DNA of 33,747 nt. It comes from Nanobdellota archaeon (GTDB lineage: Archaea; Nanobdellota; Nanobdellia; Pacearchaeales; GW2011-AR1). Numbering within the stretch: position 1 is the first letter of the stretch; every line of letters starts with the position of its first letter. The stretch spans positions 1 through 33,747 of the forward strand of contig JBBSXF010000050.1 of NCBI GenBank assembly GCA_038045905.1, given 5' to 3'. This document shows, piece by piece, positions 789 to 32,790 of the stretch. The position numbers and the translations under genes were made by a program. Under the pieces are notes generated by a model, which was not told the origin of the DNA, searched no databases, and saw only the letters and a list, made by a program, of their open reading frames with translations.

Positions 789-932
789 AGCCTGTGCTGA
801 GGATTGAACTCAGGACCCCCACATTTTTGGTACATCCATTCTCAACTTCTTGTTGGGTTGCTGGAATTGTGAAAAACTCGCTGGAGGTTTCCATTACCAA
901 TGTGGTACTCTAACCAACTGAGCTACACAGGC
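789..932 (-). tRNA. tRNA-Thr (anticodon GGU) with a 70-nt intron (825-894) at canonical position 37/38
   Basis: The reverse complement folds as a cloverleaf. Acceptor GCCTGTG/CACAGGC. D arm GCTC-AGTTGGTTA-GAGT. Anticodon stem CCACA/TGTGG with loop TT-GGT-A...A. Variable loop GGGTC. T arm CTGAG-TTCAATC-CTCAG. Discriminator T. TTGG(TA) of the anticodon loop pairs with (TA)CCAA at the 3' end of the intron, leaving an AAA bulge next to the anticodon stem. This is compatible with a (relaxed) bulge-helix-bulge splice motif. Confidence 0.85.
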
Positions 933-5926: not shown

Positions 5927-7447
5927 TTATTTCATCCAAAATTTCATTTTTCTTAATTGAGATAAATCATTTTTGTACATCTCTCTTAAATCTTTTATAT
6001 TGTAATAATCCATAATCATTCTGTCAAATCCAGGACCCCAAGCTAAGACAGTCATTTTTTCTCCAAGCAAAGGAATAGTTACTTCAGGGCGAAAAATTCC
6101 CGCTCCTCCCAATTCAAACCATTTTTTCTTTTCTGGATGCCATACATCTATTTGCACACTTGGTTCTGTATATGGATAATAACTAGGCATGAATCTCACT
6201 TTTTCAAATCCCATTTTCTTGAAAAATTCTTTTAAGTAGCCAAGCAGGTTTCTGAAATTTAAATTCTCGCCGACAACAATCCCTTCTGTTTGATTGAATT
6301 CAAATCCATGGCTCCAATCTACTGTTTCGTTTCTGAAACATTTTCCTATAGCGAAAAATTTTGCAGGAATGTCCTTTTTGTCAAGATTAGCTAATGTATT
6401 TGAAGACAGACAAGTTGTATGTGTTCTTAGAACAAGCCGTTTTGCCTCTTCTTCATCCCAATTATATTGCCATCCTTTGCTTCCATCCACTCCTTTTTCG
6501 TGGCTTTCTTTTACTGCTTTTACTATTTTTTTATCTGGGAGGTTTCCTTTCCTATTTGTGAAGAAAGTATCCTGCATTTCTCTTACAGGATGGTCTTGTG
6601 CAGTGAAAAGAGCGTCGAAGACCCAGAATGAGCTTTGCACTATATCTCCTGACATTTCTTTAAATCCCATATCTGTCCAAACTTTTTTAGCATAATCTGC
6701 CGCTTGATTAACAAAATGTCTTTTTCCACCATTTATTGATGGGAGAGGAGAAGTAACATCATATCTTCTGAACTTCTTTCCTTTCCAAGCAGATTCTTTT
6801 TCAAGTATCTTTGGTGTAATCGCTTCAATTAACTCTCCAACTTTTTTCCCCGATTTAATAATTTCTTCTCCAAGCTTTGTTAATATAATTCCAATTGTCT
6901 CTTCTTCTTTTATTTGAATTATATTTTTTCTTCGCTCGAAGGATTTTAACGCATATAATTGCTCGGGGGTTAATGAATTATAATTAACTGGAAGAACTTC
7001 GATAAATAATTCTTCTAATGTTTTTTTGGATATTTCGTTTCCACTCCCTGTTAGAATTATTTTTTCATTTTTTATATCAATCAAAGCTTTTTTTCTCAAG
7101 GCACCAATAGACGCTTTAAATTCATCATCTGACAACCCACTCTGCTTTTGAGCATCATCCATTTTTAAAATTCTTTTTTCTGTTATTAAGTTTAGAAGTC
7201 TTCTTTCAGGAAGTCCCTTCTTTTTGTATAATGCTCCATTTATTCCAACTTCAACTATCTTTTTTTTAACATGAGATAATGTTAATATTCTCTTATTTTC
7301 TAAATAATCTAACGCTCTTAAAACAGAAGTTTTGTCAAGTTCAGATTTTTTTGCTATTTCTTCTATGTCTTTTTCTTTTAAGTATGGAAGGATTTTTGTT
7401 TCATTAGGACTTAATGATTCTATTATTTTGTTAATATTATCCATCAC
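5927..7447 (-). CDS. pheS: phenylalanine--tRNA ligase alpha subunit (archaeal/eukaryal type)
   Basis: 506 aa with N-terminal winged-helix repeats and a class II core (FWVFDALFTAQDHPVREMQDTFF, RTHTTCLS, GKCFRNE, GAGIFRPEV). The first codon in the track is GTG (7447), and an ATG follows at 7444. Confidence 0.9.
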   Translation of the reverse strand: MMDNINKIIESLSPNETKILPYLKEKDIEEIAKKSELDKTSVLRALDYLENKRILTLSHVKKKIVEVGINGALYKKKGLPERRLLNLITEKRILKMDDAQKQSGLSDDEFKASIGALRKKALIDIKNEKIILTGSGNEISKKTLEELFIEVLPVNYNSLTPEQLYALKSFERRKNIIQIKEEETIGIILTKLGEEIIKSGKKVGELIEAITPKILEKESAWKGKKFRRYDVTSPLPSINGGKRHFVNQAADYAKKVWTDMGFKEMSGDIVQSSFWVFDALFTAQDHPVREMQDTFFTNRKGNLPDKKIVKAVKESHEKGVDGSKGWQYNWDEEEAKRLVLRTHTTCLSSNTLANLDKKDIPAKFFAIGKCFRNETVDWSHGFEFNQTEGIVVGENLNFRNLLGYLKEFFKKMGFEKVRFMPSYYPYTEPSVQIDVWHPEKKKWFELGGAGIFRPEVTIPLLGEKMTVLAWGPGFDRMIMDYYNIKDLREMYKNDLSQLRKMKFWMK

Positions 7448-8740: not shown

Positions 8741-9013
8741 ATGGAAATATATAAAGATAGAAGCATAATCCACTATCCCAGTTTAAAAACTATATTAATG
8801 GTTGAAAAGATTTTGAAAAACGCAGACGCAATGATTGATAGAGAGGAGTTAAAGAGAAGATTGCCTGTTAAAATTATGCATCAAACTTTGAATTTAATTT
8901 TGTTATATCTCGAAGATAAAGGTATGATTTTGGATAGCCATAAAGGGATATTATGGATATATAATCCAAGTTCTAAATTAAAAAAAGCTATTGAAAACGC
9001 TAGGGAAGTTTAA
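8741..9013 (+). CDS. small winged-helix-like protein, putative antitoxin/regulator partner of the downstream RelE-like gene
   Basis: 90-aa ORF with a TATA box upstream. Its stop TAA (9011-9013) lies 1 nt before the ATG of the next gene. It has a truncated paralog at 22524..22691 (shared HYPxLxTILMVE). Confidence 0.45.
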   Translation: MEIYKDRSIIHYPSLKTILMVEKILKNADAMIDREELKRRLPVKIMHQTLNLILLYLEDKGMILDSHKGILWIYNPSSKLKKAIENAREV

Positions 9014-9014
9014 G

Positions 9015-9389
9015 ATGTTTAATGGGAAAGAGATTATTGTTAAGCTTAGTAATGAAGCTGACAAAGTTTATCAAGAACTTAATAAAACTGTTGGAGAAGA
9101 AAAAATTAAGGGAGTTGAAAGTTCTTTTCATCAGACTTTATTAAGAAGCATAAACAGAGTAAAAGAAATATTAAAACAAAATCCATTTGCAGGTAACCAG
9201 ATTCCAAAAAGTCAAATTCCAGAAAAATATCTTTTAAAGTATGATGTTGATAATTTATGGAGAATTGAGCTTGCAGATAGATGGAGATTAATTTATACTA
9301 TTACTGGAAATCAAATTAATATTATTAATTTTGTTGTGAACATATTTAATCATAGAAACTATGACAAGGTTTTTGGATATAAACACTAA
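9015..9389 (+). CDS. RelE/ParE-superfamily toxin-like protein
   Basis: The C-terminus ILKQNPFAGNQIPK...NLWRIELADRWRLIYTITGNQINIINFVVNIFNHRNYDKVF matches the RelE/ParE pattern (nP..g..l......yRirvgdyRliY.i.....i.i..i.hR..Y). The track start at 8991 is a TTG, so the ATG at 9015 is preferred. Confidence 0.6.
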   Translation: MFNGKEIIVKLSNEADKVYQELNKTVGEEKIKGVESSFHQTLLRSINRVKEILKQNPFAGNQIPKSQIPEKYLLKYDVDNLWRIELADRWRLIYTITGNQINIINFVVNIFNHRNYDKVFGYKH

Positions 9390-10483: not shown

Positions 10484-10728
10484 ATGGCGACTTATAATAA
10501 CGAAGAAATTAATCGGCTTTTATGCGGGAAAAGGCTTCCAAGAGAAGAAGATTTGTTAGTTATACAGCCAGATGGAACTCGTGCCTGTGCTGGGGGGAAT
10601 TAACTAAAGGATTTCATTTGTATTCTCCTAAAAAAGAAAGAGAATTGAGTGATATGGAACTTTTAGAAGATACATATAGAGAAGTGGGTTCTTTGAGAAC
10701 GAAAAAATTCCCCCTTATTTTATCGTAA
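10484..10728 (+). pseudogene. small gene apparently split by a frameshift at a G6 run (39-aa ORF 10484..10603 plus the -1 frame continuing to 10728)
   Basis: ATTTATAATAGC sits about 25-35 nt upstream of the ATG at 10484. Frame 0 ends ...GCT GGG GGG AAT TAA. The -1 frame reads through as ...GGG GAA TTA ACT... to 10728 (the C-terminal part of track ORF 10522..10728). Confidence 0.3.
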
Positions 10729-19270: not shown

Positions 19271-19837
19271 ATGGTTATGTTATTAGTAGCTTGGATTGGA
19301 TTAGGATTGATCGGATTAGTAATATTATTATTCCTAACTTATTTTAATAGATTCGCTGTTTTAGGAAATAGAATTGATAATTCTTTAAGTCAAATTGATG
19401 TTCAATTGAAGAGAAGAGCAGATTTAATTCCCAATTTAATTGAAACAGTTAAAGGATATACAAAGCATGAAAATGCCGCTATAAAAGCAGTGACTGAAGC
19501 TAGAAAAGCTCTTGTTTCTGCCAAAGGCGTTGAAGGAAAAGTTAAAGCAGATAAGGGGCTTGAATCTGCATTGAAAACAATTTTTGCTCTTGCTGAAAAT
19601 TATCCAGATTTAAAAGCAAATACAAATTTTCTTGAATTACAAAGGGAACTTGCAACAACAGAAGATAAAGTTGCGTATTCAAGGCAATTTTACAATGATA
19701 GCATTCTTGCTTACAATGATTTATGCAAGACATTTCCAGGAACATTCTTTGCAGGAATTTATCACAAGAAAGCAAGAGAATATCTTAATCTTCAAATGAC
19801 TGAATCAGAAAGAAAACCAGTAAAGGTTAAGTTTTAA
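19271..19837 (+). CDS. lemA: LemA family protein
   Basis: N-terminal TM helix, then QIDVQLKRRADLIPNLIETVKGY..HE ... ENYPDLKA...F..LQ.EL..TE.K.A.SR..YN..I..YN, the classical LemA signature. Confidence 0.85.
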   Translation: MVMLLVAWIGLGLIGLVILLFLTYFNRFAVLGNRIDNSLSQIDVQLKRRADLIPNLIETVKGYTKHENAAIKAVTEARKALVSAKGVEGKVKADKGLESALKTIFALAENYPDLKANTNFLELQRELATTEDKVAYSRQFYNDSILAYNDLCKTFPGTFFAGIYHKKAREYLNLQMTESERKPVKVKF

Positions 19838-19885
19838 ACCTAAATATTTATAAACATAATTCACTAATATTTCTTGTAATTAACG

Positions 19886-19910
19886 CTATCGTTACTACCT
19901 CCGACGATGG
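19886..19910 (+). promoter_or_regulatory. hairpin in the predicted 5' leader of NYN gene 1, with an ACCTCC (anti-SD-like) loop
   Basis: CTATCGT-TACTACCTCCG-ACGATGG: 7-bp stem (one G-U) and an 11-nt loop. The nearest TATA-like box (TTTATAAA, 19847-19854) is about 95 nt upstream of the ATG, which implies a leader of about 70 nt. The hairpin is flanked by GTAATTAA at 19876-19883 and 19915-19922. Confidence 0.35.
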
Positions 19911-19942
19911 TTTCGTAATTAAAATTAAATTATACTTTCTAA

Positions 19943-20488
19943 ATGAACATGGAGAAGACCGCTATATTTATAGATTTGGGCTATTTGATGTCAATTACTA
20001 AGCAACTTGGTAATCTCAAATTAGATTTTGATAAATTTTCAAAAGCTTTTATAGACATTTCTAAAGAAGATTTATTTAGAGTTTATGTATATTATTGTTC
20101 TCCTTTTCAAGGCGATCCTCCAACAGATGAAGAAAAATTTAGAAAATCAAATAGCGATCGATTTATGAGAAAAATTAAAAATCTCCCTAGGTTTGAGATA
20201 AGATTAGGCAGATTAACAAAAACAAAAAAGGGAGACTATATTCAAAAAAGGGTGGATACTTATTTCTCTATAGATTTAGTTAAACTTGCAATAAAAAAAG
20301 ATATACATAATGCAATTTTAATTGCAGGAGATAGTGATTTTGTACCCCCTATTTTGGAAGCTAAAGAAAATGGAGTTATTGTAAAACTTAAGTATTATCG
20401 AGATACTGTTCAAAATGAACTTCTTGAATGTTGTGATGAAAAATCAGAAATAACTGCAGAATTTCTTAACTCTTGTAGAATCTCTTAA
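19943..20488 (+). CDS. NYN/LabA-like (PIN-fold) ribonuclease domain protein
   Basis: AIFIDLGYL, VDTYFSIDLV and LIAGDSDFVPPI are the conserved acidic motifs of NYN (DUF88/LabA) domains. The likely true start is the second ATG at 19949 (MEKTAIFID), which parallels the paralog at 31745. Confidence 0.75.
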   Translation: MNMEKTAIFIDLGYLMSITKQLGNLKLDFDKFSKAFIDISKEDLFRVYVYYCSPFQGDPPTDEEKFRKSNSDRFMRKIKNLPRFEIRLGRLTKTKKGDYIQKRVDTYFSIDLVKLAIKKDIHNAILIAGDSDFVPPILEAKENGVIVKLKYYRDTVQNELLECCDEKSEITAEFLNSCRIS

Positions 20489-20641
20489 TTAATTTCTTTT
20501 AAAACAAACGATTTATAAGTTTACAAAAAAAAGTCCCAATACAGAAAGATCATAGAGGGACAATTATTAGTTTTAATACTTCTTTGTGTTTTAGAAATCT
20601 TACGATTTTATTAATTTTTCAAAACATACAAAAACATTTAA

Positions 20642-20651
20642 GTTTTATAAA
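20642..20651 (+). promoter_or_regulatory. TATA box for recQ
   Basis: GTTTTATAAA centred about 27 nt upstream of the ATG at 20674. Confidence 0.4.
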
Positions 20652-20673
20652 GTTATATTGATAATTATAAAAG

Positions 20674-22434
20674 ATGAAAACCTTACTAAAAAATTATTTT
20701 GATTATGATGAATTTAGACCAATGCAAGAAGAGATAATAACAAATATTCTTCAAAAAAAGGATGTACTAGTCGTCATGTCTACAGGGGGAGGAAAATCTA
20801 TTTGTTATCAATTGCCAGCATTAAGATTTGAGGGGATTACTATTGTAATTTCTCCGCTCATTGCTCTTATGAAAGACCAAGTTGATGAACTAAAATTAAA
20901 AGGAATTAAAGCGGAATTTATCAATTCCTCACTTTCTTACGAAGAAATTATTAATATTCAAAATAAAATTTGGAAAAATGAAGTAAAAATTCTTTATATT
21001 GCACCAGAGAGGCTGGCATCAAATAGTTTCAAAGAATTTTTAAAAACAGTTGAAATAAGTTTAATTGCAGTAGATGAAGCCCACTGTATTTCAGAATGGG
21101 GGCATGAGTTTCGCCCAGATTACAGAAATTTAAAATCATTAAAGGAAATTTTTTCAAATGTTCCAATAATTGCTTTAACTGCAACAGCTACAAAAAAAGT
21201 TAGAGAGGACATTTTAAAACAATTATCCATGCGAAATCCCCAAATTTTTGTTTCCAGTTTTAACAGAAAAAATCTTAACTTAATAGTCATGAGAAAGAAG
21301 GACGCATTCAATAAACTTTTAGAATTACTTATAAAACACCGAGATAAATCAGTAATTATCTATTGTTTTTCCCGCAAAGATTCAGAAAAAATTGCTCAAA
21401 ATTTAACTGACAACGGATTTAATGCTCTCCCCTACCATGCTGGATTAGACAATCAAGTTAGAAAACGCAATCAAGAATTATTTATTAATAATGAAATAAA
21501 AATTATTGTTGCAACAATTGCTTTTGGAATGGGGATAAATAAGCCCGACATTAGAATGATTGTACATTATACTTTTCCAAAAAGTGTTGAGGGTTATTAT
21601 CAAGAAATTGGAAGAGCTGGGCGTGACGGACTTCCAAGCGATTGTGTTTTATTTTATTCATATGGTGATAAAAGGAAACACGAATTTTTTATTAATCAAG
21701 TTAAGGATGAAAATGCACAAAGAATTGCTAGAGAAAAATTAAGCCAAATAATTAATTATTCAGAAATGGATAAATGCAGAAGAAAATATCTTTTAGAATA
21801 CTTTGGGGAAAATTTTTCGTATGATAATTGTGGGGCGTGTGATATTTGTTCAGGGATTTTAAAATTATCTGAAAGACCTCTCGGGGATAAATTAAAAATT
21901 GAAAAAATAAATGAGGACTATAATCCCCAAAAAACAAAAGAAATGATCTTAAAAAAAATTTCGATAAAAGAAATTGCAAAATTGGAAGGATTTAGAGAAA
22001 GCACAATTCTTAGGCATATCGAAAAGATTGTTGCTAAAGATAAACAAATAGACATTAATTATTTACTCCCTTCCGAAGAAAGATTTAAAAAAATAAAAAC
22101 TGCCTTTGAAAAATTTGGAACTGAAAGGCTTGCTCCAATTTATAATTGTTTTAATGGAGAATTTTCTTACGAAGAAATTAGATTAGTAAGAATTGTTATA
22201 AAATCCGAAGAAAATATTGAGGGTAATAACAAAGAAGATATAAAAACAAATTATCATGAAAGATTAGAACAAATTAAGAGAGAATTTTCAAATGCTTATG
22301 AACCTTGGAAGCAAGAAGATGAGATTCTATTAAAAGAATTATATTCGGATGGCAAATCTAACCTCGAGATTGCTCAAATTTTAAAGAGACGACCAAGTGC
22401 AATTTCGTCTCACTTAAAAAAAATTTATTCCTAA
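20674..22434 (+). CDS. recQ: RecQ-family DNA helicase with C-terminal HTH domains (no recognisable HRDC)
   Basis: FRPMQEEII, STGGGKSICYQLPA (motif I), DEAHCISEWGHEFRPDY (motif II), LTATAT, the Zn-binding module CRRKYLLEYFGE...CGACDIC, then an HTH_40-like segment (SIKEIAKLEGFRESTILRHIEKIV) and a terminal HTH (SNLEIAQILKRRPSAISSHLKKI). Confidence 0.85.
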   Translation: MKTLLKNYFDYDEFRPMQEEIITNILQKKDVLVVMSTGGGKSICYQLPALRFEGITIVISPLIALMKDQVDELKLKGIKAEFINSSLSYEEIINIQNKIWKNEVKILYIAPERLASNSFKEFLKTVEISLIAVDEAHCISEWGHEFRPDYRNLKSLKEIFSNVPIIALTATATKKVREDILKQLSMRNPQIFVSSFNRKNLNLIVMRKKDAFNKLLELLIKHRDKSVIIYCFSRKDSEKIAQNLTDNGFNALPYHAGLDNQVRKRNQELFINNEIKIIVATIAFGMGINKPDIRMIVHYTFPKSVEGYYQEIGRAGRDGLPSDCVLFYSYGDKRKHEFFINQVKDENAQRIAREKLSQIINYSEMDKCRRKYLLEYFGENFSYDNCGACDICSGILKLSERPLGDKLKIEKINEDYNPQKTKEMILKKISIKEIAKLEGFRESTILRHIEKIVAKDKQIDINYLLPSEERFKKIKTAFEKFGTERLAPIYNCFNGEFSYEEIRLVRIVIKSEENIEGNNKEDIKTNYHERLEQIKREFSNAYEPWKQEDEILLKELYSDGKSNLEIAQILKRRPSAISSHLKKIYS

Positions 22435-22523
22435 ACTTGATGATAATTCTATACCCTCTAACTCTTAATTTATACACTCAAATTTCATATAATTTTGAAA
22501 GATTTATAAGTTAATATAACAAC

Positions 22524-22691
22524 ATGGAACAGACATTTAACAAGAAGAATATCCTTCATTATCCGCAATTAGATACTATCTTGATGGTTGAAGAATTTAT
22601 TAAAAAGAAGTTTGGAGATTACAAGAAACGAAATCTTTGCCAGTTAGTAGAGCAGAATTTAGATTCGGAGATAATAAATGAATCGGACTAA
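22524..22691 (+). CDS. 55-aa truncated paralog of the 8741..9013 wHTH-like protein (not in the ORF track)
   Basis: Own translation: MEQTFNKKNILHYPQLDTILMVEEFIKKKFGDYKKRNLCQLVEQNLDSEIINESD*. It shares the (I/N)(I/L)HYPxLxTILMVE core with the 8741 ORF. GATTTATAAG sits about 20 nt upstream of the ATG. Confidence 0.45.
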   Translation: MEQTFNKKNILHYPQLDTILMVEEFIKKKFGDYKKRNLCQLVEQNLDSEIINESD

Positions 22692-22802
22692 TTAAACTAT
22701 CGTCTATGAATTAAGTTTTATCGTCGGAGATTTTAGATAGGAAGCTTTTTATATAACCTATTCTTAAGATATAAAAGGATTAGAGGTGAAAAAACAATTA
22801 AA

Positions 22803-23054
22803 ATGACAGGAAAGCCAGTATCAATATTCAGAACGAAAGAGCAGATGTTAATAGCAGAGCAACAAGGAAATGTCCTGATTGATGATAAAGTTCTCATAAA
22901 TCCTCAATTCAAAGGAGCAGAAATGAAAGAACTTCTAGGATTTACAATAAAAGAAGGAAGTGATTTTACAGTTACCGATGTTAAGAGAATAAAAGACAAC
23001 CCCCGAGCATTTATGGAAGTGGCTTTTGGAGAGGTTGATACTGATGCCAATTGA
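22803..23054 (+). CDS. hypothetical 83-aa protein
   Basis: TATA-like CTTTTTATATAAC at about 22744-22756. Strong SD GAGGTGA 13 nt upstream of the ATG. Overlaps the next ORF by 11 nt. Confidence 0.5.
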   Translation: MTGKPVSIFRTKEQMLIAEQQGNVLIDDKVLINPQFKGAEMKELLGFTIKEGSDFTVTDVKRIKDNPRAFMEVAFGEVDTDAN

Positions 23055-23490
23055 GACTGGACTTTATTTCTTTCATATTTCTTTTTTAAAAGAGGTTTCT
23101 GATAGTTGGTTGAGTAGGGGGAATATAACTAGATCAGCAAATATATTTATGGAATTAGTTTCTTTTAGATGTAATGGAAATCAATTAGCAATTTGTGATA
23201 GGACTATCAAAGATTTGATAACTTGTGACAGAACTATAGTAGAAATTTCTAAGCCAAAATATATTTTAAAAGCAATTCCTGGTTTTTTTGATTTAGTAAC
23301 AGAAAAATCCCTACCAAATGATAGTGAGTCAGATAATGATATTTATTCGCTAAAAGTTGCTTCTATTAAAAGAATTAATCCTTATCCCACTTTTTTTCTT
23401 GTATCTGATGAAGAAAAAACAAGAATAAATGAATTAGCAAGAACAAAAGGATATACCTTAAAAATAATGTCTCCGAATGATTTTCCATAA
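23044..23490 (+). CDS. hypothetical 148-aa protein with internal CDRTI(K/V) duplication
   Basis: The track start at 23026 is a TTG. The ATG at 23044 overlaps the upstream stop region, consistent with translational coupling. No family recognised. Confidence 0.5.
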   Translation: MPIETGLYFFHISFLKEVSDSWLSRGNITRSANIFMELVSFRCNGNQLAICDRTIKDLITCDRTIVEISKPKYILKAIPGFFDLVTEKSLPNDSESDNDIYSLKVASIKRINPYPTFFLVSDEEKTRINELARTKGYTLKIMSPNDFP

Positions 23491-23568
23491 AACTTTTTTT
23501 GTCTTCTTTAGCTGACGTTTACTTTACATTTCCCTAAACCTTAAAAACTAACCTTTATTTAATCAATC

Positions 23569-24450
23569 ATGGAAAAAAGAATTGATTTCCGAGACCAAAT
23601 TGCAAAGAATAAAAGAAAATCTTTTTTTCTTATGGCTGTTGTTTTTTCAGTAATTGTTTTATTGGGATATGTTATTTCAAAAGCATTTGAATCATCAGGA
23701 TATTTCTTTATTATAATGATTTTTTCAATTATTTTTTCAATTTCTTATACTTTGTTTAGCTTTTATAATTCAGATAAAATTGCTCTTTTTAGTGTTGGTG
23801 CAAAAGAAGCTAAAAGGGGAGAATACAGGCAATTTTACGATATTGTTGAAGGATTGACAATTGCTTCTGGATTGCCTATGCCTAAACTTTACATTATGCC
23901 CTCTCGACAAATAAATGCATTTGCTTCTGGCAGAGACCCAAAACATTCTGTTATATGTGTTACAGAAGGAGCTTTAGAAAAATTGGATAAAAAAGAATTG
24001 GAAGGAGTATTGGCTCATGAGTTGGGACATGTAGAAAGCTATGATATTAGATATATGACTTTAATTGCAGTGATGGTAGGGATAATTTCAATAATCTCTG
24101 AAATATTTTTGAGAAGCCTTTGGTTTAAAAGTGGAGATAGCAATGATAATCGGGGAAGTATTTTCATGATAATTGGCATTGCTTTAGCAATTTTAGCTCC
24201 TATATTTGTGTTTTTTATTCAAATGGCTATTTCCAGAAAACGGGAATTTACTGCTGATGCTTCTGCTGTAAAGTTCACGAGATATCCTGCTGGATTGATT
24301 AGTGCATTAAAAAAAATAGGACAAGAAAACCAACCAGAAAAAAAAGTTAGCAAAGCAGTTGCTCCTTTGTTTTTTGCAAATCCATTCAAAGAAATTGGAA
24401 GCACGCATCCTTCAATTCAAAAGCGAGTTGATGCTTTGCAAAATATGTAG
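23569..24450 (+). CDS. htpX: M48 family zinc metalloprotease HtpX
   Basis: Two N-terminal TM helices, HELGHV zinc motif, two further TM helices, downstream REFTADA and STHPS..KR. Confidence 0.85.
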   Translation: MEKRIDFRDQIAKNKRKSFFLMAVVFSVIVLLGYVISKAFESSGYFFIIMIFSIIFSISYTLFSFYNSDKIALFSVGAKEAKRGEYRQFYDIVEGLTIASGLPMPKLYIMPSRQINAFASGRDPKHSVICVTEGALEKLDKKELEGVLAHELGHVESYDIRYMTLIAVMVGIISIISEIFLRSLWFKSGDSNDNRGSIFMIIGIALAILAPIFVFFIQMAISRKREFTADASAVKFTRYPAGLISALKKIGQENQPEKKVSKAVAPLFFANPFKEIGSTHPSIQKRVDALQNM

Positions 24451-31744: not shown

Positions 31745-32287
31745 ATGGAGAAGTGTGCTATTTTTATTGATGGGGGATATCTTAATAGAATTAATAGAGA
31801 TTATTTTGATTCTTCAAGTATTGATTATCTTAAACTATGTGATGAGATTTGCAATACTTTAAAATTAACTCGCTTGAGAACTTATTACTATAATTCAATG
31901 CCCATTATAAGAAAAGGAAATAAAGAAGACGAAAAGAAACATTCTAAAATGCAATTGTTCTTTGCAAGCCTTAAAAGACTGCCCCGTTTTGAGGTAAAAC
32001 TCGGAAGACTTCAATTAATAGGCGGACAATTTAAGCAAAAGATGATTGATGTATTAATGTCTTTAGATATTGTCAGTATGTGTTTTGATAATCAGATACA
32101 ACAGGCAATTCTTATTGCGGGTGACTCGGATTTTATCCCTGCAATTAAAAAAGCTAAAGATTGCGGAGCAATAATTCATTTATTCTATCACCCTAAATCT
32201 GTTCATAATGAGATGTTAGATGAAGTAGATGAACTTCATATTCTTTCTGAAGAATTAATAAACAAATGTAGGAAACGATCATTATGA
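31745..32287 (+). CDS. NYN/LabA-like (PIN-fold) ribonuclease domain protein (paralog of 19943..20488)
   Basis: AIFIDGGYL, IDVLMSLDIV, LIAGDSDFIPAI. It shares LPRFE(I/V)(R/K)LGRL and the same MEK..IFID start as the first copy. Confidence 0.75.
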   Translation: MEKCAIFIDGGYLNRINRDYFDSSSIDYLKLCDEICNTLKLTRLRTYYYNSMPIIRKGNKEDEKKHSKMQLFFASLKRLPRFEVKLGRLQLIGGQFKQKMIDVLMSLDIVSMCFDNQIQQAILIAGDSDFIPAIKKAKDCGAIIHLFYHPKSVHNEMLDEVDELHILSEELINKCRKRSL

Positions 32288-32790
32288 ATTCACACTTCCT
32301 TTTAGAGAAACTTGAAGATTCTGAAGAATTTAAAAAATTTAAATCAGAAAATAAAGATGCTTATCTCTGCTCTGGCTTTTTCATTTTGGATTTAAATGAG
32401 AAAAATCCTGAAAATAAATATCATTTTGACTTTTACATTCCGTTTAGCAAGAAAACATTTAGCTTTGAGTTAGAAGACGGAATTAAATTAGTTGAATTGG
32501 AAAGATTAGAAGAAGAAAAAGTTTTAGAAGAAGTTTCTTTAAAAAATCATTTTGACTTTGGAGAAATTCAGCAAAAAATTTTGACAGAAATGGAACTTAA
32601 GCACATAAGCAATAAAATGCAGAAAATGATTTTTTCTTTGCAGAGCAAGGATGGAAAAGATATTTTGATTGGAACAATATTTCTTTCTGGATTAGGATTA
32701 ATTAGTGCTAATTTTGATTTAACTGAAAATAGAATAACTGATTTTGAGAAAAAATCTTTATTTGATATGATGAAAATTATTAAGAAGTGA
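32284..32790 (+). CDS. hypothetical 168-aa protein translationally coupled to the NYN gene
   Basis: The start ATG overlaps the NYN stop (ATGA at 32284-32287). Acidic, no TM helix, no family recognised. Confidence 0.55.
   Translation: MNSHFLLEKLEDSEEFKKFKSENKDAYLCSGFFILDLNEKNPENKYHFDFYIPFSKKTFSFELEDGIKLVELERLEEEKVLEEVSLKNHFDFGEIQQKILTEMELKHISNKMQKMIFSLQSKDGKDILIGTIFLSGLGLISANFDLTENRITDFEKKSLFDMMKIIKK

Follow-up and report, generated by a model that had tools for sequence, protein, structure and literature searches.

The described systems closest to the locus reported here are hotspot islets lodged in conserved gene pairs, the extended RecQ helicases, the PsyrTA and Dpd systems, which include RecQ-like helicases, and the type II toxin-antitoxin (TA) modules along with other small autoregulated modules of plasmids and viruses. 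In the extended RecQ proteins a RecQ core and a zinc-binding domain are followed by HTH_40, the founding protein of which we take to be YpbB. The final ~300 residues of certain long RecQ proteins are similar to YpbB, which, with RecS, constitutes in Bacillus subtilis a replication-fork maintenance complex that is recruited via the single-stranded DNA-binding protein SSB (Costes et al., PMC3000357). The locus occupies positions 19838-23568 of a 33,747-nt contig (JBBSXF010000050.1; assembly GCA_038045905.1) of a Nanobdellota archaeon, the whole of which is hereafter called the window. It contains five open reading frames (ORFs), encoding an NYN nuclease, a RecQ-family helicase, a truncated 55-aa product and the small proteins u83 and u148, which separate lemA from htpX. 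Comparison with related loci indicates that this 3.7-kb block is probably a lineage-specific composite insertion of at least three independent components, situated at a variable spot of a conserved backbone, and that it does not form a single functional system.

The flanking genes are the two halves of a pair: lemA, upstream (19271-19837, + strand), matches Pfam LemA with an expect value (E) of 4.9e-53, and htpX, downstream (23569-24450, + strand), which encodes an M48 zinc metalloprotease, matches Pfam Peptidase_M48 with E 2.6e-32. A LemA scan of one genome per GTDB species yielded 80 loci onto which the window proteins were mapped; 75 were informative. The htpX gene is found no more than 300 bp downstream of lemA in 51 of these, in bacteria and archaea alike; it lies farther downstream in 10, with 0.5-2.9 kb between the genes, and there is no htpX downstream of lemA in the other 14. 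The window LemA is 75% identical to that of Nanoarchaeota/Woesearchaeota metagenome-assembled genomes, the closest relatives with long flanks showing 68-75%. Relatives L004 and L006 (LemA identity 69-74%) have a lemA-htpX gap of 38-65 bp, and in L009 the genes are also adjacent. A backbone composed of phosphoenolpyruvate (PEP) synthase, ferredoxin, lemA, htpX, a 266-aa membrane protein and a 668-aa protein is common to L002, L004 and L005, the first two also retaining its 183-aa ORF and class I tRNA synthetase. Because of this adjacency and the conserved backbone in relatives the 3.7 kb is an insertion. The block as a whole, set against the conserved flanking backbone, exhibits the presence/absence pattern of a genomic island and is lineage-specific. 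This finding is congruent with the initial annotation, which had proposed that accessory DNA separates two normally adjacent genes. Relative L003 was excluded from the adjacency evidence owing to a run of N placed exactly between lemA and htpX. It is the closest relative by LemA identity; the run (10523-10633) cuts both genes, the break in the assembly coinciding with this variable junction.

Inserts of 0.95-1.9 kb occupy the lemA-htpX junction in L002, L005, L008 and L015, and their cargo is unrelated, which makes this junction a variable spot, one that has repeatedly received insertions in Nano- and Woesearchaeota. In L002 (9239-10357) the cargo is a secreted protein of 372 aa that contains a fibrinogen-C-like domain, and in L005 (10899-12423) it comprises four small genes. 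A 5.3-kb insert in L004 (4845-9970) lies between ferredoxin and lemA and holds an opposite-strand 369-aa ORF and large secreted proteins; judged from these loci, the whole ferredoxin-lemA-htpX area is a variable region. Like hotspot islets in conserved pairs, the block has conserved flanks, a site that receives differing and unrelated cargo, an apparently mobile-element-derived cassette and a truncated gene. It differs from them in lacking an integrase, a transposase, a tRNA target, flanking repeats and a compositional deviation, and its NYN and RecQ are ordinary genes of the lineage, not typical island cargo. Neither the ORF list nor Pfam disclosed an integrase or transposase within 19838-23568. 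No flanking direct repeats or target-site duplication above chance were found around the block, and no duplication exists between the left junction (the lemA-NYN spacer, 19838-19942) and the right junction (the u148-htpX spacer, 23491-23568); att or terminal repeats of a genomic island are likewise absent. The comparison with the flanks that the initial annotation had called for gave an unremarkable result, the tetranucleotide distance of the block ranking 11th of 61 windows and its GC (guanine plus cytosine) fraction being 0.28-0.30.

The first component of the block is the NYN nuclease gene (19943-20488, + strand; 181 aa; apparently intact; Pfam NYN, E 4.5e-13). It scores 50.4 bits against PF01936, the cut-off for which is 24.2. 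Four aspartic acid residues (D11, D105, D130 and D132) are shared by all members of the family alignment, and the nuclease looks catalytically intact, as the initial annotation had it. Relatives with 67-75% identity occur in five metagenome loci, and RecQ is found in the available flanks of none of them. In L091, a 565-kb contig, the relative is flanked by ribosomal protein L10e and PEP synthase; the one in L093 is near RNase HII, a major facilitator superfamily transporter and a HEPN/nucleotidyltransferase pair. The window contains a second NYN paralog (31745-32287; 180 aa; ~35% identical) directly after threonyl-tRNA synthetase. A scan of IMG/VR with NYN returned no relatives. On the strength of these neighborhoods NYN is a common stand-alone gene of these genomes. 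A 168-aa ORF (32284-32790), for which Pfam gave no match, overlaps the end of the paralog by 4 nt, and the two may represent another coupled pair.

The second component is a RecQ-family helicase of 586 aa (20674-22434, + strand), in which the Pfam domains DEAD, Helicase_C and RecQ_Zn_bind, all scoring above their gathering thresholds, are followed by HTH_40 and a C-terminal HTH_38-like module. Membership of the RecQ family is indicated by 520 bits against TIGR00614 (cut-off 219.8); against TIGR01389, the model of canonical bacterial RecQ, it reaches 574 bits, which is below the cut-off of 640, and the match is confined to positions 1-393 of 591. Pfam revealed no HRDC or RQC domain. A protein search produced thousands of relatives, of which the best 120 were read for architecture; these belong to Nanoarchaeota, Pacearchaeota and Patescibacteria, and almost all possess the core, the zinc-binding domain, HRDC and HTH_40, often with a recognizable C-terminal helix-turn-helix (HTH); counted over the search and the alignment, more than 100 relatives share the build with HTH_40 and a C-terminal HTH. 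Since the ~682-aa relatives share them, the two HTH modules that had been regarded as extra are the family norm, forming the normal C-terminus of RecQ in this lineage; DPANN and candidate phyla radiation (CPR) organisms have as their standard helicase a RecQ with these modules, HTH_40 and a C-terminal HTH. Compared with the extended RecQ proteins typified by B. subtilis RecS/YpbB, the window copy is archaeal and is without the HRDC that nearly all of its close relatives have. Its alignment with the ~682-aa relatives is collinear, with a clean in-frame gap of ~96 aa at their HRDC, which has been lost in frame after approximately residue 416 (~nt 21922). Identity to protein P0013 is 86% in the core (residues 1-417) and 60% in the C-terminus, versus 69% and 65% for P0018. 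The switch in identity coincides with the HRDC deletion (junction near 21922), and because the two regions differ in this way the protein looks mosaic around the deletion point, which suggests that it was produced by recombination between RecQ lineages. In light of the YpbB-like C-terminus of long RecQ proteins its role points to genome maintenance, not defense.

Five further RecQ loci were inspected, and they represent varied housekeeping contexts: RNase J and an Mre11-like phosphoesterase (L097), RadC (L098), Asp/Asn-tRNA synthetase (L099 and L100), and topoisomerase I with RadA-like genes (L101). None includes lemA, htpX or an orthologous NYN. The matches of RecQ to the PADLOC models DpdF and PsyrT are strong (E 1e-122 to 1e-166) but involve residues 1-394 only, that is, the generic core, a stretch that TIGR01389 recQ matches with 574 bits. 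While PsyrTA and Dpd contain RecQ-like helicases, the window protein groups with canonical RecQ, and there is no PsyrA-like or DpdA-DpdK partner adjacent to it; its neighbors NYN, the 55-aa ORF and u83/u148 match none of the PADLOC models for those systems. PADLOC DpdF/PsyrT matches alone are no ground to read such RecQ genes as defense markers.

The third component is formed by u83 (22803-23054, + strand; 83 aa) and u148 (23044-23490, + strand; 148 aa; ATG start). The genes overlap by 11 nt, and a Shine-Dalgarno-like GGAGAGG is located inside u83, ~10 nt before the u148 start codon. Neither protein matched anything in Pfam, NCBIfam, PHROG or PADLOC, in agreement with the earlier view of them as a coupled pair of no known family; indeed, the u83/u148 family is the only really unfamiliar part of the block. 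The first protein, u83, is acidic (pI, isoelectric point, 4.85); it has 12 cluster homologs (72-100% identity; 82-106 aa), all without a Pfam match, and its gene is directly upstream of a u148 homolog in every case fetched. Ten cluster homologs of u148 exhibit 52-84% identity and lengths of 148-150 aa. A profile search of 1.84 billion representatives yielded ~27 clusters (50% identity) at E<=1e-10, all of ~140-150 aa; three long repetitive proteins (P0145, P0162 and P0171) were discarded as summed chance matches. Residues H11, S13 and Y101 are invariant in u148. The NCBI annotation gives u148 as 113 aa (P0002, AABW47_01925), and all homologs support the 148-aa form.

Searches of PDB with sequence profiles of the two families returned nothing. 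The AlphaFold models are of low confidence (mean local confidence, pLDDT, 49.5 for u148 and 43.4 for u83), and Foldseek comparison of the low-confidence u148 model with PDB gave nothing below E 0.3. Two candidate affinities were considered and dropped. The stretch "FFLVSDEEK...GY" of u148 recalls "LIAGDSDF...G" of NYN, as in a divergent PIN/NYN-like domain; hhalign of the u148 family against the NYN family gave a probability of 0.2%. The β-β-α-β-β order in the low-confidence u83 model recalls the AbrB/MazE/SpoVT fold; hhalign gave a probability of 0.4%, and none of 11 family members has a Pfam match.

Upstream of u83 is a leader (22697-22802, + strand) with two tandem copies of TATCGTC (22698-22704 and 22719-22725; 21-nt spacing), a TATA-like TTTTTATATAA at 22746-22756 and a Shine-Dalgarno-like AGAGGTGA at 22782-22789. 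About 70 nt of this leader, carrying the TATA-like box and a GGAGGTGA-type ribosome-binding site, are conserved, and the promoter/Shine-Dalgarno stretch recurs in the contigs L082, L086, L089 and L090. A further copy of the pair, in L106, likewise has a leader that begins with a repeat of 7-9 nt at 21-nt spacing, here TTGTCGTCG twice, and its two repeat units carry one and the same A-to-G change; such paired identical changes fit what is expected of an operator. Homology with L106 at the DNA level (84%) begins at ~22700, a few bases past the stop codon of the 55-aa ORF, and the genes upstream differ, which fixes the left edge. On the right, conservation among the copies ends at the u148 stop codon, the u148-htpX spacer (+ strand) showing no conservation with other copies beyond it. 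With these boundaries, the region from about 22697 to 23490 is a self-contained two-gene cassette with its own promoter-like leader.

Of the genes in the block, only the members of this pair recur at other loci, where neither NYN nor RecQ accompanies them. They adjoin and overlap in each of the six independent contexts fetched (L082-85, L086-88, L089, L090, L102-104 and L105), across which u83 is 62-81% identical and u148 52-70%, and no other window gene is common to these contexts. Members of the L082-85 group carry an N6/N4 methylase, an IS240 transposase, PCNA and a primase; those of L086-88 a DNA methylase, a topoisomerase-like protein, LAGLIDADG and ~35 small ORFs without matches; L089 and L090 a tyrosine integrase, a Holliday resolvase and a DDE transposase; and L102-104 an MT-A70 methylase and a DDE transposase. 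In L106 u148 is cut by the contig end and an HNH endonuclease is nearby. The gene just upstream of the cassette is usually a small DNA-binding regulator of plasmid type, the family of which varies by context: a CopG RHH_1 protein in L102, a winged helix-turn-helix (wHTH) of Sulfolobus_pRN type in L089, HTH_45 in L086 and a HicB-like ribbon-helix-helix (RHH) protein in L105. In the window the cassette abuts the truncated 55-aa ORF. Contigs L082 (ENA ERZ27315831, 32 kb), L086 (25.6 kb) and L089/L090 (17-19 kb) are of low GC content, and nearly all of their ORFs lack Pfam or PHROG matches, the rest being PCNA, primase, methylases, integrase, resolvase and 1250-aa proteins; such contigs may stem from plasmids or viruses of DPANN archaea that have yet to be described.

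Several properties of the pair are those of type II TA and small autoregulated modules of plasmids and viruses: two short coupled genes with their own promoter, of which the small acidic one comes first; occurrence on diverse mobile-element-like contigs; adjoining CopG/RHH or wHTH regulators; and tandem repeats upstream of the promoter. As in TA modules, two small overlapping genes move as a unit among mobile elements. In contrast to type II TA systems, u83 and u148 resemble none of the established toxin or antitoxin superfamilies in sequence or profile, and conservation is higher in the upstream protein than in its downstream partner. The layout is most like that of an autoregulated maintenance, exclusion or toxin-antitoxin-type module; that the pair is such a module is conceivable but less likely than not. 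It is possible, if doubtful, that the pair, its tandem-repeat leader and an exchangeable regulator together constitute an undescribed two-gene module specific to DPANN-type mobile elements, one copy of which has been captured intact in the chromosome studied here; such a module could serve as a toxin-antitoxin system of a new kind, in superinfection exclusion or in element maintenance. As a small and rare protein pair it marks mobile elements of small archaea and is tractable for expression tests.

The 55-aa ORF (22524-22691, + strand) lies between RecQ and the cassette. Pairwise BLASTP aligned its residues 3-27 with the full-length 90-aa paralog at 8741-9013 (48% over 25 aa, E 2e-8), and its residues 6-40 match a 93-aa homolog in L093, L093_93 (40% over 35 aa). 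Similarity is confined to residues 3-40, short of the full-length ~90-aa family, and no remnant of the C-terminal half was found in any reading frame; the ORF is on this account considered truncated rather than frameshifted, and the initial description of it as a decayed copy of the 8.7-kb gene is upheld. The ORF matched nothing in Pfam, NCBIfam or PADLOC. The description of the 8.7-kb genes as a wHTH and RelE-like pair held in part. The 132-aa partner (8991-9389) is weakly YoeB/RelE-like (E 6.5e-5; 23.3 bits, below the Pfam cut-off of 27), and for the 90-aa family no significant Pfam match was obtained to confirm the wHTH label. A toxin-antitoxin assignment of 8741-9389 is tentative. The two ORFs overlap by 23 nt, and the L093 homolog of the 90-aa protein has no RelE-like neighbor.

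Taken together, the block would have been assembled from a stand-alone NYN gene, the close relatives of which are single genes in ordinary chromosomal neighborhoods; a mosaic copy of the normal, YpbB-like extended RecQ of the lineage, deprived in frame of its HRDC; and a mobile two-gene cassette (about 22697-23490) consisting of a leader and the presumably translationally coupled u83 and u148. The 55-aa gene may have lost its 3′ half, and perhaps also a RelE/YoeB-like partner, through arrival of the cassette. Within the cassette the tandem TATCGTC repeats would act as the operator of what is possibly an autoregulated maintenance or exclusion module of mobile elements, and each gene of the block would be transcribed from its own A/T-rich promoter-like sequence. 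Promoter-like copies of (A)GATTTATAAGTT are present at 20507-20531, just past the NYN stop codon, and at 22498-22522, ~20 nt before the 55-aa ORF; no ORF follows right behind the first.

A 10-mer, ATCGTCGGAG, is present only twice in the window: once in the TATCGTC repeat of the cassette leader and once, inverted, upstream of NYN, in the lemA-NYN spacer (+ strand), where direct reading gives ATCGT-N11-ACGAT including CTCCGACGAT at 19899-19908. The sites fall within 19886-19908 and 22697-22729; 0.27 matches are expected and 2 of 100 shuffles reach two, which makes the signal weak. The shared 10-mer could be a common operator or a coincidence; if the former, the putative DNA-binding component of the module could also control the NYN gene. 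It was considered as the terminal inverted repeat of an element made up of NYN, RecQ and the 55-aa ORF, and rejected, being only 10 nt long, equaled in 2 of 100 shuffles and without a consistent pattern in related loci.

A number of observations weigh against a composite origin with a mobile cassette as outlined. Protein divergence from the relatives amounts to 25-30%, and ~20 kb of each was sampled, their own NYN and RecQ positions being outside that view; NYN and RecQ may have moved into the lemA-htpX junction together, and in L099 a distant NYN (25% identity) is found 2.3 kb upstream of RecQ. No flanking repeats, integrase, transposase or distinct composition testify to an insertion mechanism or to the number of events. 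The contigs bearing the cassette would be mobile-element-like by gene content only: they have no terminal repeats, none of them is in IMG/VR, and scans of IMG/VR with u148, u83 and the u83 alignment returned no relatives. The higher conservation of u83 than of u148 is, moreover, unusual for an antitoxin.

The alternative that survives best, although we consider it unlikely, is that the whole 3.7 kb represents a single decayed mobile element, comprising NYN, a RecQ copy, the wHTH/RelE-like pair and the cassette, which has lost its integration machinery. The occurrence of the cassette on mobile-element-like contigs elsewhere is in keeping with this, as are the PHROG matches of the NYN and RecQ families and the atypical nature of RecQ (HRDC lost; mosaic, 86%/60%). 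Furthermore, the same groundwater sample includes a full-length RecQ with 86% identity among housekeeping genes (L097), so the window RecQ could be a second copy. Against a single element, neither NYN nor RecQ is present on any of the cassette-bearing contigs, close NYN relatives are chromosomal, att-like repeats, an integrase and a compositional signal are all wanting from the block, and the homology with L106 stops at the cassette edge.

The initial annotation had favored one defense or nucleic-acid-surveillance islet of five genes, in which NYN and RecQ would be the effectors and the small genes sensors or regulators. In its favor, all of the genes point the same way with little space between them, their site is variable, and NYN and RecQ-like proteins are known in defense systems, PADLOC giving a weak NYN/HEC-09 match besides the strong DpdF/PsyrT ones; the restriction of ATCGTCGGAG to the cassette leader and the sequence preceding NYN may be added. 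This proposal is now very unlikely. Orthologous NYN and RecQ were never found together in the related loci retrieved, the PADLOC matches of RecQ concern its generic core and PsyrA and DpdA-DpdK are not adjacent, its architecture is that standard in the lineage, u83/u148 travel without NYN or RecQ, and the three small ORFs have no PADLOC match. Of two outcomes which the initial annotation had named jointly as telling against its proposal, one was observed, in that orthologous NYN and RecQ do not co-occur in the loci retrieved; the other was not, the small ORFs matching no housekeeping family. The block is best regarded as ordinary variable cargo in a conserved gene pair and is not to be catalogued as a new defense system. 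That the order lemA-NYN-RecQ-...-htpX is ancestral for the clade, the intervening genes having been lost in relatives with an adjacent pair, is most improbable: three of the seven closest relatives do have something between lemA and htpX, but these inserts are unrelated to each other and to the block, none of the 80 loci shares any part of the block at the same site, and adjacency, as the majority state across bacteria and archaea, is the parsimonious ancestral condition.

The coordinates of the seven ORFs from lemA to htpX, all on the + strand, were confirmed from the ORF list and the sequence. Family calls for lemA, NYN and RecQ agree among Pfam, NCBIfam and PADLOC, and that for htpX between Pfam and NCBIfam; against the NCBIfam HtpX models the protein has E 3.5e-88, its 295.7 bits being below the equivalog cut-off of 355 bits for NF003425. 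Two other assemblies of the same strain, L001 (100% identity) and L096 (99.7% over 7.8 kb), display the same lemA-NYN-RecQ order. Sequence L096, from Hainich well H51 at ~4x coverage, has a 1-nt insertion in a G run at position 6949 (~20254 in the window) which frameshifts NYN at approximately codon 104; it may reflect faulty assembly or a variant in which the gene is truly inactivated. Rfam gave no match to a non-coding RNA in the block, and the 185-nt NYN-RecQ spacer folds no better than shuffled sequences (z = -0.88). The GC content of the window is ~30%. Elsewhere in the window, Rfam (50.4 bits) detected a 144-nt tRNA gene at 789-932 (- strand) that was missed by ARAGORN; it presumably contains an intron, which is consistent with an archaeal origin.

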